A stretch of DNA of 60,726 bases from Kiritimatiellales bacterium (GCA_021734595.1 JAIPIO010000001.1:1-60726); one strand, 5' to 3'. Positions 48,096-54,395 are shown, counted from the first letter of the stretch. The notes: generated by a model from the sequence alone, not told the origin. A program made the numbers and translations.

Positions 48096-49736
48096 ATGGC
48101 CATTCATCCAGACGCAGGGAAACCCGTTGCAAAGAAAAACCTGACCGACATCGCCGAGCTCGTCAGCCTCTACTACGAGACGCAGCCCAACGTGACCAAC
48201 CCCGACCAGAAGGTCGCCTTCGGCACCTCCGGCCACCGCGGCACCGCGCTGAACACCAGTTTCACCGAAGACCACATCATGGCGATCTCGCAGGCCATCT
48301 GCGAATACCGCGCCGGGCAGGGCATCACCGGCCCTATGTTCATCGGCAAGGATACCCACGCGCTTTCCACTCCGGCCGAAAAAACGGCGCTGCAGGTCTT
48401 CGCCGCCAATGGCGTAACGGTGATGATCGACAAGGACGGCGGCTACACCCCCACCCCCCTCATCTCGCACGCCATCCTCGCATATAACAGAGGAAAGACC
48501 GAAGGGCTGGCCGACGGCGTGGTTATCACCCCGTCGCACAACCCCCCCGATAACGGCGGCATCAAGTACAACCCGCCCAACGGCGGCCCGGCCGACACCG
48601 ATATCACCAGTTGGATTGCCGACCGCGCCAACGGTCTGCTGACCGATGACCTCCTCGAAGTAGAGAGCCTCTACTACCAAGATGCGCTCGATGCCGACAC
48701 CACCGTGGCCTACGACTTCATCTCGCCCTACGTTGAAGACCTCTGCAACGTCATCGACATGGAAGCCATCGCCAAATCCGGCCTCAAGATCTGCGCCGAC
48801 GCCATGGGCGGAGCAGGCATCCGCTACTGGAAGCCGATTGCCGAGAAATACGGTATCGGCCTCACCATCCGCAACGACATCGTCGACCCCACCTTCAGCT
48901 TCATGACCGTCGATCGCGACGGCAAGGTGCGAATGGACTGCTCCTCGCCCTACGCCATGGCCAGCCTGGTCGCCCTCAAAGACGAGTTCGACATCGCCTT
49001 CGGCAACGACCCCGACTACGACCGCCACGGCATTGTCACCAAATCCGCCGGATTGATGAACCCAAACCACTATCTCGCCGTAGCCATCAACTATTTGTTT
49101 ACCCATCGTACCGGCTGGCGCGCAGATGCCGCCGTCGGCAAAACACTGGTGAGCTCGTCAATGATCGACCGCGTTGCCACCGATCTCGGCCGTACGTTGC
49201 AGGAGGTTCCGGTCGGCTTCAAATGGTTCGTCGACGGGCTCGTCGATGGCTCCTACGGTTTCGGCGGCGAAGAATCCGCCGGGGCATCGTTCCTGCGCAA
49301 GGACGGCACGGTTTGGACCACCGACAAGGACGGTATCATCCTTTGCCTGCTGGCCTGCGAAATTCTGGCCGTCACCGGCAAGGATCCGGGCGAGCACTAC
49401 CAGGAGCTCGTCGCCAAGTTCGGCAACCCGGTCTATGATCGCGTCGACGCCCCGGCCACCCGCGAAGAAAAAGCCAAGCTGGCCGCCCTTTCGCCCGATC
49501 AGGTGAAAGCTGAAACGCTCGCTGGCGAAGCCATCATCGCCAAGCTCACCCACGCGCCCGCCAACGGCGCGGCCATCGGCGGCCTCAAAGTGTGCACCGA
49601 AAACGGCTGGTTCGCCGCCCGCCCCTCCGGCACCGAAGACATCTACAAAATCTACGCCGAAAGCTTCAAAGGCGAGGAGCACCTTCGCCTCATTCAAAGT
49701 GAAGCGAGAGAGATAGTGAATCAGGCGCTCGCCTAA
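48096..49736 (+). CDS. pgm: Phosphoglucomutase (alpha-D-glucose-phosphate specific)
   Basis: 546 aa. Phosphoserine loop [16 protein letters not shown]. Mg-binding and sugar-binding loops are as in Pgm. Confidence 0.95.
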
Positions 49737-49828
49737 TTCGCGACGATTGAAACGTGAGGCGTGATTAGTCCAGTCACGTTTCACGGCTCACTTTAATGTA
49801 GACGATGCTTCCAGCTTCGTTGTGCCGG

Positions 49829-49920
49829 GTAGGAATGGCTCGCCGAGCCGTCCGCACACATGGACGGAAGGCCATCCTGCGAGGCGGCGCTTTCGGCGAA
49901 CACGCCCCACCTATTCCTAC
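49829..49920. repeat. 92-bp GTAG-headed miniature element (REP/BIME- or MITE-like)
   Basis: Termini GTAGGAATGG (49829..) and, on the opposite strand, GTAGGAATAGG (..49920). An internal hairpin CCGTCC gcacacat GGACGG. Confidence 0.55.
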
Positions 49921-50060
49921 AGCTTGATCCGATAGAAATGCACCGCGTTGGTAGCGTCGCGGCTCACCAGCTTGAAGGTCAGAGTGTTGGTGGTGACCGC
50001 ATGTTCTTCCAGCTAAACAATGTCGCCCATCAAAACCCCCTGCCTCGCAACATAGCTCTC

Positions 50061-52877
50061 TCATTTTCTCCGACGCTGACTTTCCGCGAAGGCATGAATG
50101 TCCTTCTCGCCAGAACGGAGGAAATCCAAAAAATCCACCCCCATGTATTTGCAGGTTTGGCAGATACTCAGTAACGTTAGATATTCTTTCACCCCCTTTT
50201 CAGTAGAACTTCCAGCAATTACAACTCGGAGTCTCGCAAATGCCTTAATAGCATGCTCGGCAGCGTTATTATGCCAAGGAATCCCGTCATGGCTAAGGAA
50301 TGTAAAGAGTTCATTCCGATTTCGCTCAAACCGTTCTTTGCATTTATTGGCAACCTCACTATGACAATCGGCCTCTCTAATCATTCTATAGAACCGCTCA
50401 ACGCCAGTTAAGTGCTTCTTTAGGTAATATTTCTTGAGTCCAAAGCGATCCACAGTTTCTACTATTTCTTTGAGGAGTTCTGCAAATGCCGTGACCACCT
50501 GTCTTAATTCCGTATCAAATGGATTATTCAGAACGTCGTCATTCAAATCCCGCATCAGGTGAATAAGGCACCGTTGATGAGGGCAATCGATTGAGTTATA
50601 CGCAGTGTAAAAATCGGACACCAAGACTCCACCGAATCCCTCTAAAAGCAGTTGGATCATCTCCCCTTCCCGGCTATCCGCAAAAATGTATACGACCTCA
50701 CTATTACTGGTCAGTACCCAGACAAACCCAGACTGCCCCTGTATGTTTGCCCTAGTTTCATCTGCATGGACAAGCCCTCCTTGAACAATATGATTGAGTA
50801 TCTTCTGCACTGTCTCTGAGTAATATTCCACAACTTTTACTTTCATATTATTAAAAGTACTCGTGCTTAGATCAAAATCGAAAAGCCTGTTAAATTGGCG
50901 AACCACAGTGCGTTGTGGAATATTCAACTCGATAAGCTGGAAGAAGAGATGCACTACCAGATTCCAGCCATACTGCCGGAACAGTCGGAACCTATTTGGC
51001 ATGCCAAAATAAATTCGACATTGTCGGCAGTGGTAAATGCGAAATACGTGCTTGACCACTCTTCGCTTGAGACTGTGCCGCCCGAAAACGATATCATGAA
51101 CCGTTTTAAATTTTTGCGTGGCTTTGGAACGAACCTTCCGTTGGCAATTTGGACAATAGGGTGACGCAGGCCAGACGACAACCAGTTGCGCCTGCTCGGG
51201 CGTTATCTTCCTAGAGCGGTGAGGTGAAACTTTCTTAGGCGGCTTACCAAATCGAGCGTAAACGCGGTCCCTATAATAGTCCCAATGCGCGACGGCATTT
51301 ATTTCCTCAAATCCGTCTATCGGACTGGCAAAGGCTTTCCATTTTGATCTTTGTTGGTTTTGTTCAGCATCCGCATGTACAACATCTGAATCTCCTAATT
51401 GAGCCGAACTCTCCACGCCCAACTGCATAACCAACAATCCGACTCTGTCCGTTAGCAAACTTAGAGCCTCGCAATCCTCTGCATTATAAGAAACCAACTT
51501 CATCTGCTCGGACTGCTTCATGCTGTTCTCCCACACTGCCCTCCATGCTACGGTTTGCACTCCGGAGGGCGAATCGGATGCCCAGTTGAAGCCAAGGTAT
51601 GTGGCAATTTCCTTCAGCCCGTTTGAATAAGTTGGGAAATAGATTTTTGCAAATATCACCGAGACGAGATTACATGCAGAGGCTATTGCTTTCTCTGCAA
51701 CAGATTCGGATGGGGGATTCCCGTAACGCTCGGACATTCGTTTGAAGAAAATAGTTTCGTAGTTGCCATAGTGTATAAGGATGGGATTCTCAACGTTTTC
51801 AAGCACGCCGAGGAATTCCTGCCAAATCTTTCCTTCATCTTCGACTGTGTCCGCCCAAAGGCTGTGATGGACTGCGGATTCACCGTCACCGACTCGCAGG
51901 CCGATGAGGTAGTAGAAATCGCGATCAGGCAACCCTTCGACATCCAGATAGACGGGGGTACCTTCTATTTTTAGTTCCGGACTTCCCACGATGTGGATTT
52001 TATTTTCGCGAATCGCGAGTGCCTTGAGGGAATGGTGGTATCTCTCCGGTTTGTCACGCATCTTCTTGGGTCTTCGACGGGGTCGAAACGTGTAGGAAAG
52101 TTGCGTGACGGTAAAGATACCTTTGCTATTAAGCTTCTTGCGCTCCTTCCCATTCATGCGCGCAAGTAGACTGAGGTCATCTTTTTCCTCCGCGATACGG
52201 CGGCACCTGCTTTGAAACTCGCACTCAGCACAATGCCGATTCAACACAAGATCGGGCGGCGAGGAACTGGAGAGGATTTCGGAGATTCTCGTGAGGCTCC
52301 TTTGCACCTCGGTCGCCAAAGGCGGGAGCTTTATCCGTCGAGTTGCGTGCTTGTCACCGTGAATGATTTTGCCGAGGCCGATAGATCTCTTCAAGGATTT
52401 CGAGAGTGCATGGGCATCAAACGCCAGCATCAGCTTGTCGTCTTTGCCCAGTTTGTTGATGAAGATGAATCGAATGGGAATACATTGCACCGCCTTACCT
52501 TTGTCGTCTGGCGGCACACGCTCGATGGCATGTATATGAGATTCGACCATGCATTTCTGCTGCGGTTTATCCTCCGCCTCATTACCGCCCTCTTCCTCTG
52601 TGTGTACTGGAGGATGGCATTCCGGCTCCTGTGCCGCAACCTTCACAGCCAACCGCCACTTACCACCCTTCATCTCTTTCACCGATGGGGAAACTAAACA
52701 CTCGCCTTCGAGTGTTTCCAGCAGTAATCGCTTAACCTGTGCCTCGCGATAAGACTCGCCTTGGGTCTGAACCCATTCAGCATACGTATTGCCAGAAGGT
52801 GATTCACCAGAGGCTCGCAACCAACACTTGGTTTCGCATTTAAGAAATGCTTCAAAAAGATTAGGCGTAATTCTCAT
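50061..52877 (-). CDS. Fusion protein: TM0106-type RecB/Cas4-like nuclease plus RNase-H-like exonuclease module (N-terminal, about 470 aa) joined to an IS66-family DDE transposase (C-terminal, about 400 aa)
   Basis: One uninterrupted 938-aa ORF with SD GGAGGATTAATCC before the ATG. N-terminal: LKCETKCW .. CAECEFQSRC (Cas4-like Cys set), HhH-like KGIFTVTQL, VYLDVEGLP..YYLIGL..IHYGNYE..YNAEDC. C-terminal: CPNCQRK..HCRQC (zf-IS66-like), VHADETRANIQG..FVWVL..LVSDFYTAYN..HQRCLIHLMRDL, WHNNAAEHAIKAF. Confidence 0.85.
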   Translation of the reverse strand: MRITPNLFEAFLKCETKCWLRASGESPSGNTYAEWVQTQGESYREAQVKRLLLETLEGECLVSPSVKEMKGGKWRLAVKVAAQEPECHPPVHTEEEGGNEAEDKPQQKCMVESHIHAIERVPPDDKGKAVQCIPIRFIFINKLGKDDKLMLAFDAHALSKSLKRSIGLGKIIHGDKHATRRIKLPPLATEVQRSLTRISEILSSSSPPDLVLNRHCAECEFQSRCRRIAEEKDDLSLLARMNGKERKKLNSKGIFTVTQLSYTFRPRRRPKKMRDKPERYHHSLKALAIRENKIHIVGSPELKIEGTPVYLDVEGLPDRDFYYLIGLRVGDGESAVHHSLWADTVEDEGKIWQEFLGVLENVENPILIHYGNYETIFFKRMSERYGNPPSESVAEKAIASACNLVSVIFAKIYFPTYSNGLKEIATYLGFNWASDSPSGVQTVAWRAVWENSMKQSEQMKLVSYNAEDCEALSLLTDRVGLLVMQLGVESSAQLGDSDVVHADAEQNQQRSKWKAFASPIDGFEEINAVAHWDYYRDRVYARFGKPPKKVSPHRSRKITPEQAQLVVVWPASPYCPNCQRKVRSKATQKFKTVHDIVFGRHSLKRRVVKHVFRIYHCRQCRIYFGMPNRFRLFRQYGWNLVVHLFFQLIELNIPQRTVVRQFNRLFDFDLSTSTFNNMKVKVVEYYSETVQKILNHIVQGGLVHADETRANIQGQSGFVWVLTSNSEVVYIFADSREGEMIQLLLEGFGGVLVSDFYTAYNSIDCPHQRCLIHLMRDLNDDVLNNPFDTELRQVVTAFAELLKEIVETVDRFGLKKYYLKKHLTGVERFYRMIREADCHSEVANKCKERFERNRNELFTFLSHDGIPWHNNAAEHAIKAFARLRVVIAGSSTEKGVKEYLTLLSICQTCKYMGVDFLDFLRSGEKDIHAFAESQRRRK

Positions 52878-53005
52878 GGATTAATCCTCCATAAAACCAA
52901 AATGCTTTTCTAATATTCACCTACTTCACTCAGTACCCCAGCGCTCTATCCCAACCACAACCATATGATTCGTTTTAACCAGAAACGATGGTTGAACTGG
53001 TCATT

Positions 53006-54079
53006 CTATCTTCCTGTGTCATGGCCACCCTTTTGAGGAGCAGATTTGATTTGCTGGATCATTCGATCAAAGTCGCTTTCGAAGAGGCGGTCCTGAGTGA
53101 TGCGGTATTTTTCAAACTCGCTTTCGGCATGGGCTTTGGCCAGCTCTGCCGTCACCTTCCCCGCATCCTGAAGGATTTCCCGATCTGTCACCTCGATAAA
53201 CCGATTCAAGCGAGTTTCCCAATCCTGCATGGTCATAGGAATCTTGCGTAACGCCATATCTTCCGCCACATCCAAATAGGCCGAAACCAGTCGTTGTAAT
53301 TGAGCCATTTCGCCTTCTGACAAATAGTTTTTGGCGACACCCACATCGAACACTTGAATTTTCCCCTGTGGAGCATCTTTCCATGAAGTCAGGCCCATAT
53401 GTTGTTTTTGATGATCCGCCCGGTCAACGATCACTTCGGCTGCGGTCTGCGCATGAATGGCCCAATGCAGCTTGTTCTGTACGGTTGCGAAAAACCGTTT
53501 AGTGGCCTGCGCCGAAACATCGTAGTCAATGGATGTCGCATAGATGTCCGTGATTTTTTGGTAGAATTTTCGCTCGGAAAGACGTATTTCGCGAATCCGC
53601 TGCAAGTGTTCTTCAAAATATTGTTCCGATAGGATGGAGCCGCCGTTCTTGATACGCTCATCATCCATCACATAGGCTTTGATGGTAAATTCCTTGATAA
53701 CGTCCGTGGCCCACTTGCGGAACTGCACGGCGCGTTCTGAATTGACCTTGTATCCAACCGCAATTACCGCCGAAAGATTATAGTGCTTGGTGTCGTAGCT
53801 CTTGCCGTCGGCAGCAGTTATTCGAAAATTTCGAATAACTGAAGTTTCCTCCAGCTCACTATCGGAAAACACCTTTTTCAGGTGATAATTGATGGTATGT
53901 GTTTCGACATCATAGAGAACCCCCATCATCTTTTGCGTCAGCCAGATGTTTTCATCCTCATAGCGCATTTCCACGCTGGACTCCGACCCTCCTCCGGCGG
54001 CGAAAAACGTGAGATATTCCGCCGCAGATGAGCGGATCATTGACATCTCTTTTTTATCTGCCCTTTTTTTATCCGCCAT
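53006..54079 (-). CDS. rhuM: RhuM-family (virulence-associated, Fic/DOC-context) protein
   Basis: EMRYEDENIWLTQKMMGVLYDV..INYHLKKVF..RNFRITAADGKSYDTKHYNLSAVIAVGYKVNSERAVQFRKWAT is the canonical RhuM N-terminal region. Start taken at ATG 54079. Confidence 0.88.
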   Translation of the reverse strand: MADKKRADKKEMSMIRSSAAEYLTFFAAGGGSESSVEMRYEDENIWLTQKMMGVLYDVETHTINYHLKKVFSDSELEETSVIRNFRITAADGKSYDTKHYNLSAVIAVGYKVNSERAVQFRKWATDVIKEFTIKAYVMDDERIKNGGSILSEQYFEEHLQRIREIRLSERKFYQKITDIYATSIDYDVSAQATKRFFATVQNKLHWAIHAQTAAEVIVDRADHQKQHMGLTSWKDAPQGKIQVFDVGVAKNYLSEGEMAQLQRLVSAYLDVAEDMALRKIPMTMQDWETRLNRFIEVTDREILQDAGKVTAELAKAHAESEFEKYRITQDRLFESDFDRMIQQIKSAPQKGGHDTGR

Positions 54080-54395
54080 ATCAACGTTCCTTTTTGAACC
54101 ATAGAATGTACCGAATGGAACTTCCGTGTTTTCAGTGTATTCCGTGGTCAACCCTTCTTCTTGCCTGAATGTGTTCCAACAAAACCGCCGCTCGGTCTCG
54201 CTGTCACCCAACTACCTTCCCCATTATCAAAAACCTGAAAGAGCATAGAAAGGAATGCACTTGCCAGCAAGGAGAACCGGAACGTGAAACGTGACGATTG
54301 AAGCGTGGTTTCCTTCTGATCACGCCTCACTCTTCACGAATCATGGCCACCCGCAACTCGACTTTTGAACCCGGTTATGGCTGGATACGGAAATT

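Follow-up and report, generated by a model that had tools for sequence, protein, structure and literature searches.

To our knowledge, IS66 is among the least understood of the large insertion sequence (IS) families, and neither the roles of its TnpA and TnpB proteins nor its transposition chemistry is known. Tn7 has defined ends and gives 5-bp duplications, and in CRISPR adaptation, integration at both borders of the repeat duplicates a target segment of ~30 bp. We analysed a 60,726-nt stretch of DNA from a Kiritimatiellales bacterium (GCA_021734595.1 JAIPIO010000001.1:1-60726), referred to below as the window. It contains a gene for a protein of 938 amino acids (aa) that joins an N-terminal module of the TM0106 type to an IS66-type (TnpC-like) recombinase with a DDE (Asp-Asp-Glu) catalytic triad. 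The fusion protein fits the profiles of IS66 and of TM0106, and it fails the defining features of both as functional systems. We tentatively favour the view that the ORF is an intact member of a large family of single-gene elements that spreads horizontally, and that its product is a recombinase derived from IS66 which acts with the help of an exonuclease and serves a compact integrative element.

The fusion is encoded by a single open reading frame (ORF) on the minus strand, with ATG as start in the ORF listing (Table 1). The first-pass annotation of this DNA, made from the sequence alone, had described one nuclease-IS66 fusion ORF with a TM0106-type N-terminal half and an IS66-family C-terminal half carrying a zinc finger and a DDE core. 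This description was confirmed by the ORF listing, Pfam and NCBIfam, and the nuclease-family and the transposase assignments both lay above curated cutoffs. NCBIfam TIGR03491 (TM0106 family RecB-like putative nuclease) matched residues 6-475 with 158.4 bits against a cutoff of 97.45, and the match was full-length, spanning profile positions 4-458 of 462. NF033517 (IS66 family transposase) matched residues 552-921 with 195 bits against an equivalog cutoff of 180. Pfam placed RNase_H_2 at residues 309-478 (8.7e-18) and DDE_Tnp_IS66 (PF03050) at residues 636-897 (1e-32). Cas_Cas4 (PF01930) at residues 167-225 was below threshold (7e-4, 20.1 bits against a cutoff of 22.7), and TIGR00372 was under its cutoff as well (14 bits against 65). 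PADLOC models gave weak Cas4 matches and matched no other defence model. All of the motifs quoted earlier are present: C14, C18 and C216-x2-C219-x5-C225 (CAECEFQSRC) at the N-terminus; VYLDVEGLP, HYGNYE and YNAEDC in the exonuclease part; and CPNC..CRQC, HADETR, SDFYTAY, HQRCLIHLMRDL and WHNNAAEH in the transposase part.

An AlphaFold2 model built with 112 homologs had a mean predicted local distance difference test (pLDDT) score of 79.5, with values of about 90 in the N-terminal and DDE domains and low confidence over residues 236-305, which hold a helix-hairpin-helix (HhH)-like segment and a basic stretch. Foldseek searches against the PDB matched the N-terminus to Cas4 (8d3l, template modelling score 0.63-0.66; 7mi4; 4ic1) and to the Dna2 nuclease, the middle part to the exonuclease domains of family-B polymerases (PolB), and the C-terminus to the DDE transposases ISCth4 (IS256 family) and Hermes. 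At the sequence level, a PDB search with the N-terminal half or its profile returned just a marginal Cas4 match, on the non-catalytic part.

We then took a census of catalytic residues across the 112 homologs of the fusion family. Four canonical TM0106 proteins from plasmids (L096-L099) served as reference for the RecB motifs (alignment A4), which in these proteins read sDFL, yEViDTK and QLxxY (D ... E-x-x-D-x-K ... Q-x-x-x-Y). At the catalytic positions the window protein has H116, I133, R136, I138, residue 150 (given as L150 or M150) and D154. Across the family, the same six positions are occupied by H (97/112), I or V (104/112), R (104/112), I or V (98/112), L (99/112) and D (106/112), so that all six carry non-catalytic substitutions in 87-95% of the members. 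The predicted strand order puts R136 and I138 where Cas4 carries E-x-K. The other sites are kept. The iron-sulphur (Fe-S) cysteines C14, C216, C219 and C225 are present in 111-112 of the 112 members and also in the canonical TM0106 proteins, and the exonuclease residues D312, E314, E374, Y464 and D468, likewise common to the canonical proteins, are invariant (112/112). The zinc-finger cysteines C575, C578, C617 and C620 and the DDE triad D706, D755 and E874 are invariant too (112/112 each). The most conserved region of the family is the HhH-like segment with the basic run that follows it (TFRPRRRPK..YHH), and the basic run is specific to the fusions. Judged from these residues, the PD-(D/E)xK (RecB) site is lost or radically remodelled, and the N-terminal "nuclease" is an Fe-S DNA-binding fold without a RecB active site. 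The exonuclease and DDE recombinase sites look active.

These results bear on the earlier proposal that the protein works by analogy with TnsA and TnsB of Tn7. According to that proposal, the PD-(D/E)xK domain would cut the 5' (second) strand and turn an IS66-type element into a cut-and-paste element. The fusion does resemble Tn7 in joining a restriction-endonuclease-fold domain with a DDE enzyme in one transposition machine, and the fold at its N-terminus is that of Cas4/RecB. The conserved residues E119, N141, K142, D147 and D154 could in principle form a relocated active site. However, TnsA is an active, separate protein, whereas the fold of the fusion is covalently attached and is predicted to lack the catalytic residues. 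A second-strand nuclease of the TnsA kind is unlikely because the RecB catalytic positions are replaced throughout the family. The sequence alignment with Cas4 also speaks against it, since the profile-to-PDB alignment spans only the segment past the catalytic strand. The analogy with TnsA and TnsB is not supported, and we regard the model built on it as very improbable. The current names "RecB family nuclease" and "Cas4" mislead annotation, given that the nuclease motif is absent.

Comparison with the two parent families gave a mixed picture. The fusion protein has the N-terminal layout of the TM0106 family (TIGR03491/COG2251): the Cas4-like domain bears four cysteines and is followed by the HhH-like segment, and the RNase_H_2 exonuclease has identical DxE/YxxYE/YNxxD motifs. 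The protein differs from canonical members in carrying the IS66 recombinase in place of a C-terminal helicase, in the loss of the RecB motif, in its own basic stretch (TFRPRRRPK..) and in having no WYL neighbour. With IS66 TnpC, especially that of the tnpC-only ISBst12 subgroup (e.g. ISKpn15 and ISAs21), it shares scores above cutoff for both IS66 profiles, the single-ORF organisation and a DDE core that is preceded by a zinc finger and keeps its triad, but it has an extra N-terminal TM0106 module of ~550 aa. The four canonical TM0106 proteins that we retrieved came from plasmids of Aminobacter, Pseudomonas luteola, Rhizobium and Sphingobium. They are Dna2-like proteins of ~1100 aa with a predicted-active RecB motif, an exonuclease and a superfamily 1 (SF1) helicase that matches Mokosh MkoA models. 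Each is encoded divergently from a neighbouring WYL-domain regulator, and in two of the four cases a pair of genes for a DNA repair exonuclease and an AAA ATPase is adjacent as well. These loci look like an uncharacterised defence or repair module.

The first-pass annotation was not aware of a described nuclease-TnpC fusion. Full-text literature searches found no paper discussing a nuclease-IS66 fusion, but the rarity that the annotation implied was not supported. A word-indexed protein search gave 3520 matches at E<=1e-5, and the best 120 of them were all proteins of 830-1130 aa with PF03050 and PF13482 and 52-70% identity. A second query, with an acidobacterial member, listed another 120 proteins of identical architecture, so that more than 200 listed full-length homologs show the same two-domain read-through. 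With the N-terminal 480 aa as query, an exhaustive HMMER search yielded 3708 clusters (50% identity) at E<=1e-3 and 852 at E<=1e-30. When a single genome was scanned for each GTDB species, at least 563 loci came up, in phyla that include Verrucomicrobiota, Acidobacteriota, Nitrospirota, Planctomycetota, Hydrogenedentota and Bacteroidota as well as every proteobacterial class, and divergent members were present on two cyanobacterial plasmids. Closed genomes with members of the family include those of Candidatus Solibacter usitatus Ellin6076, Acaryochloris marina MBIC10699 (pREC4) and Calothrix PCC 7716 (p4), besides long-read Verrucomicrobia. The proteins are already named in databases, as "IS66 family transposase" or "TM0106 family RecB-like putative nuclease" at NCBI and as "predicted RecB family nuclease" at JGI. 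In a 2012 table (PMC3469429), four genes of Solibacter usitatus carry the label "transposase IS66: pfam03050 + COG2251 predicted nuclease", with no comment, and surveys of the RNase-H and PD-(D/E)xK superfamilies cover COG2251 but not the IS66 fusion. As far as we have searched, the family is thus very large, catalogued in sequence databases and essentially unstudied. An assembly chimera was considered for the window gene and ruled out by the hundreds of full-length homologs and by an independent Logan assembly (SRR12088349; L100), which is 100% identical to window positions 48746-53128 and reads through the domain junction. The ORF was intact in about 90% of 80 GTDB loci and broken in others (e.g. 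L019, L021, L058 and L074), and broken copies also occurred among many cluster members. Members often lie on contigs of 3-6 kb, and diverged paralogs within one genome were found in 3 metagenome-assembled genomes (MAGs).

We also compared the behaviour of the gene with that of an ordinary IS66 element, which the locus had at first been assumed to be. No gene family recurred among the neighbours across 81-91 loci, with a minimum ORF length of either 80 aa or 30 aa, and for this reason we conclude that there is no tnpA/tnpB partner; in the window, the place upstream of the fusion gene is taken by RhuM. The best inverted repeats within ±400 nt of the gene, including 60 nt of coding sequence at each end, were on a par with the null in 70 loci (mean score 20.4 against 19.0), and none exceeded the null within ±5 kb (62-70 loci). 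The upstream flanks and the reverse-complemented downstream flanks had no k-mers in common, and there was no pair of GTAAGCG, the usual start of the IS66 terminal inverted repeats (~15-30 bp). Apparent inverted repeats at two loci (L008 and L012) proved to be repetitive extragenic palindromic (REP)-like palindromes of Verrucomicrobia and were rejected as element ends. Among relatives with different flanks, homology began 4-80 nt upstream of the ATG and stopped at or slightly before the stop codon. Nine exact proteins (Table 1), followed through 50 contigs from many samples, each had one genomic context, and an exact look-up of the two flanking genes returned no records. IMG/VR showed no viral carriage of the gene. 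The DDE half is only 24-26% identical to bona fide multi-copy IS66 elements such as ISKpn15 and ISAs21; the fusion gene occurs once per record, compared with 4-40 times per record for ISKpn15. In place of the 8-bp duplications of IS66 elements, some loci have long direct repeats. The assumption of an ordinary IS66 element was therefore not upheld, since IS66-type terminal inverted repeats are lacking and each exact protein keeps to one context.

A conventional element could still be hidden in these data if the protein were that of a single-ORF IS66 insertion sequence (ISBst12-like, tnpC only) with an N-terminal extension and low activity, whose short or degenerate inverted repeats and 8-bp duplications had been missed. 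The score above the NF033517 equivalog cutoff and the NCBI name point that way. So do the many clusters on 3-6 kb contigs and the many near-identical members (152 for P0236), which are like repeats in metagenome assemblies, as well as the four copies reported in Solibacter usitatus, the GC content below that of the host and the decayed copies. Against this explanation stand the missing inverted-repeat signal, the lack of any common flank k-mer or GTAAGCG, the homology limits near the ATG and stop codon, which leave little room for ends, and the failure to find any exact protein in two contexts. We consider this explanation improbable.

The fusion gene clearly belongs to the flexible genome. 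Its guanine-plus-cytosine (GC) content was 5.1 ± 3.4 points under that of the flanks in 55 loci and was lower in 52 of them. There was no synteny of the gene between species, and MAGs of Betaproteobacteria and Acidiferrobacterales shared 88-89% DNA identity that was limited to the ORF plus less than 60 nt.

In the window, the gene lies in an island directly after pgm. The earlier claim of an AT-richer island beside a RhuM gene was borne out: GC is 47.7% in the fusion gene, 48.0% in RhuM and 55.9% in the rest of the window, and Pfam confirmed RhuM, which has the same orientation as the fusion gene and lies inside the same repeat-bounded island. The genes in the 4.6 kb between the boundary repeats are exactly the fusion gene and RhuM. 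The left and right boundary repeats aligned with a score of 34 in direct orientation (shuffle maximum 30) and 40 in inverted orientation (shuffle maximum 33); the ~53-nt repeats align both ways because each copy is an imperfect hairpin. Two core motifs of the repeat had no other occurrence in the window. Rfam and tandem-repeat scans of the island found nothing, no CRISPR repeats or cas genes lie nearby, and no tRNA gene occurs in the window. An empty site of the island was sought in metagenome contigs by exact-pattern scans and was not found. A 324-nt non-coding stretch (49737-50060) of host-like GC (~0.58) separates the left boundary repeat from the fusion gene's 3' end; no function, RNA family or terminator was detected in it.

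We next scored direct repeats around the gene in 80 loci, with mismatched loci as the null (maximum 28 bits). The results showed that direct repeats were far above the null in 12 of the 80 loci (Table 1). In about 10-12 loci, repeats of 25-154 nt enclose the gene. In a subset of loci they copy the 3' end of an adjacent tRNA, tmRNA or protein gene or a terminator, and the fusion gene is the sole gene between them or the sole one of recombinase type. The RNA-gene assignments were supported by Rfam and ARAGORN. The order full RNA gene, element, 3' fragment was found at L076 (tRNA-Glu), L120/L030 (tmRNA) and L024 (tRNA-Asn). The repeat-bounded segments measure 3.1-5.5 kb. In three of these units (L054, L068 and L076) the fusion gene is the sole ORF of at least 60 aa; three others (L049, L120 and L003) contain besides it only unannotated ORFs of 60-77 aa, and L038 has a few extra ORFs of 61-98 aa, the largest without a Pfam match. 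No tyrosine integrase was present inside any unit examined. The density of T-arm-like motifs within 600 nt of the gene was four times that found farther off. We had considered the hairpin as a universal property of the flanking repeats and rejected it, as L054 and L076 show a strong hairpin, the window a modest one and other loci none.

Two further observations concern these loci. In one MAG (SDWK01), the diverged paralogs of L049 (1-44 and 3506-3549) and L076 (1-93 and 3193-3239) both lie beside copies of the same tRNA-Glu 3' end and terminator, and L049 is a 3.5-kb contig with an identical 44-mer at both ends. This arrangement suggests either that one tRNA site carries a tandem array or that a circular form exists. 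A strain polymorphism was seen between L122 (1-460), where an ISAs1-like transposase gene lies 206 nt upstream of the fusion gene, and L120 (1-128), where the sample has a tmRNA-like 3' end in that place; in this lineage, every assembly is interrupted a short way upstream of the fusion gene.

On the reading that we favour, the DDE domain would break and join DNA, and the N-terminal module would give no second-strand endonuclease. The Fe-S domain, the HhH-like segment and the basic stretch may bind DNA ends or structured DNA, the exonuclease may trim 3' ends, and the module as a whole would functionally stand in for the TnpA/TnpB accessory proteins. Integration beside gene 3' ends would leave a long duplication or an att-like repeat, unlike classical IS66 with its 8-bp duplications. 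The unit in the window would then span 49738-54343, inserted immediately behind pgm, and would comprise the fusion gene with RhuM as its passenger. Movement would be rare on population time scales.

Several observations weigh against this reading. Set against a same-side control of equal spacing, the direct repeats numbered 6/51 straddling the gene and 3/80 in the control, an enrichment that was not significant (Fisher p=0.15), and because of this same-locus control we offer the repeat model as a hypothesis and not as a finding. About 85% of the loci have no flanking repeat at all. Among those that do, the L004 repeat is better explained as a partial gene duplication, the L068 repeat may reflect paralogous flanking genes, and the repeats of L008 and L012 are REP-like hairpins. 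The L027 unit, and it alone, carries a resolvase (serine recombinase). No inverted repeats were found directly inside the flanking direct repeats. The single context of each of the nine exact proteins counts here as well, and no transposition event was seen. The trimming role given to the exonuclease is drawn from the conservation of its residues. The tRNA-type repeats, which run from the T-arm to the 3' end, resemble ordinary tyrosine-integrase att sites, and for this reason the gene could be cargo of integrase-less island remnants. Such tRNA/tmRNA islands, including integrase-less derivatives similar to cis-mobilisable elements (CIMEs), likewise have direct repeats of RNA-gene 3' ends, as several fusion loci do. 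The fusion units differ from them in having no tyrosine integrase inside, in measuring only 3.1-5.5 kb and in that they may hold the fusion gene alone.

An alternative is that the protein is domesticated or is itself cargo and has ceased to be, or never was, its own element's recombinase. It would be a host-beneficial or addictive protein (for example in DNA-end processing, repair or anti-phage defence) that uses the DDE domain as a nuclease, and it would ride passively in defence and mobilome islands that are moved by other integrases or by horizontal transfer and recombination. This would fit the finding that each lineage examined has one copy at a fixed site, the lack of terminal inverted repeats, and repeats that might be att sites of lost integrases. 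Defence-island genes are found nearby, including RhuM/PDC-S05, type I and type II restriction-modification, ParDE, an archaeo-eukaryotic primase (AEP)-helicase, a Schlafen-like protein and LexA. The canonical TM0106 proteins, being helicase fusions beside WYL regulators, and the low identity of the DDE half (24-26%) to multi-copy IS66 elements agree with it too. However, the full transposase apparatus, zinc finger and DDE triad, is invariant, PADLOC matches are limited to weak Cas4, there is no conserved partner gene, and several repeat-bounded units hold the fusion gene alone. The lack of synteny between species, the gene-only segments that are 88-89% identical across bacterial classes and the frequent pseudogenised copies also argue against it. 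We regard domestication or cargo status as the main alternative, though a less likely one than the reading that we favour.

Returning to the exonuclease-assisted recombinase, CRISPR adaptation may serve as the nearest functional analogy for an integrase combined with Cas4-fold and DnaQ-like domains. There, Cas4 or a DnaQ-like exonuclease acts with Cas1, and the likeness is that an integrase is joined by an Fe-S domain of Cas4 fold and by a 3'-5' exonuclease, which could trim 3' ends before integration. The analogy is functional only, since the integrase of the fusion is a DDE enzyme and not Cas1, and there is no Cas2, CRISPR array or nearby tandem repeat. A bolder proposal can also be framed. 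The family could represent a new class of compact mobile element that lacks terminal inverted repeats and relies on one DDE protein, derived from IS66, for site-specific integration at the 3' ends of genes (tRNA, tmRNA or terminator hairpins). The Cas4-like Fe-S domain, though dead, and the 3'-5' exonuclease, which would be live, would assist this protein. Integration would proceed either through wide-stagger joints, with a duplication of 25-150 bp of target comparable to the duplication of a CRISPR repeat by Cas1, or through homology, exposed by the exonuclease, between the chromosome and a copy of the target end that the element carries. We think this proposal unlikely.

Some features of individual loci were recorded alongside the main analysis. 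In L005 (3690-10911) compared with L067 (5997-12833), the fusion gene and ~2 kb of a LexA-like operon are inverted relative to an AEP/DEAD helicase gene, and one breakpoint lies 4 nt upstream of the ATG of the fusion gene. The REP-like palindrome of Verrucomicrobia (GTAGCAGCCGACGTSAGGAGGCTC) flanks several loci (L012 3380-3420 and 6425-6540; L069 2465-2560). The same repeat also occurs in frame in surface loops of many members, and its translation there reads ..QSLLTSAAT.. (alignment A1, columns ~140-200 and ~300-400), and the window protein has a degenerate insertion of low pLDDT at that loop (residues ~86-108). The contigs of P0227 close on themselves, the end of L116 (5621-5838) matching the start of L114 (1-8682), which suggests a circular molecule or repeat unit of ~9 kb. 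This unit holds a restriction-modification set (cytosine methylase, PvuII-like endonuclease, controller protein and Vsr), the fusion gene and an IS91-type Y2 transposase.

Table 1. Features of the fusion gene and its island (window coordinates), direct repeats flanking the gene at other loci, and exact proteins compared between samples
Feature	Position or length	Strand	Remarks
Fusion gene, complete ORF: TM0106-type N-terminal module and IS66-type (TnpC-like) DDE recombinase	50061..52877	-	ORF call, profiles, model
Cas4/RecB-fold domain, residues 1-235	52173..52877	-	pLDDT ~90
HhH-like segment (GIFTVTQLS), then basic stretch (TFRPRRRPKK..YHH), residues 236-305	51963..52172	-	
RNase-H-fold (PolB/DnaQ-like) 3'-5' exonuclease domain, residues 306-487	51417..51962	-	
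IS66-type transposase region, residues 552-921	50115..51224	-	Zinc finger, DDE triad
RhuM-family gene (PADLOC candidate defence family PDC-S05)	53006..54211	-	Pfam 3.9e-107; PDC-S05 1e-149
Left boundary repeat	49738..49790	.	Hairpin-like; starts 2 nt past the pgm stop codon (49736)
Right boundary repeat	54289..54343	.	Alignment with left repeat
Direct repeat, L004	154 nt		
Direct repeat, L054	133 nt		
Direct repeat, L038	81 nt		Last 78 nt and stop codon of upstream gene
Direct repeat, L120/L030	76 nt		tmRNA 3' end
Direct repeat, L076	47-85 nt		Last 5 nt of tRNA-Glu and terminator
Direct repeat, L049	at least 44 nt		tRNA-Glu 3' end
Direct repeat, L027	40 nt		
Direct repeat, L068	37 nt		
Direct repeat, L039	28 nt		tRNA 3' end
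Direct repeat, L024	25 nt		tRNA-Asn, T-loop to 3' end
Direct repeat, L003	25 nt		
Direct repeat, L074	560 nt		95%; around truncated gene copy; possibly flanking IS copies
Exact proteins with one genomic context			P0062, P0018, P0107, P0002, P0149, P0227, P0279, P0451 and the window protein

The finding is less striking than it first seemed, in that the architecture is common and already annotated and the proposed nuclease role fails. What makes it remarkable is a huge family with an unexplained combination of a predicted dead nuclease, a putatively live exonuclease and a putatively live DDE site, and with none of the hallmarks of an IS66 element, neither ends nor tnpA/tnpB. The family appears to have swapped TnpA/TnpB for a defined, foldable module made of an Fe-S DNA-binding domain and a 3'-5' exonuclease. 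If the protein is domesticated, it would be a rare bacterial case of a transposase exapted together with a repair-type exonuclease. If the long 3'-end repeats are its product, it would provide DDE-based, integrase-like insertion and possibly a compact tool for site-directed integration. With thousands of members in soil and freshwater phyla, the family offers a single-protein system in which to ask what an IS66-type DDE enzyme needs.

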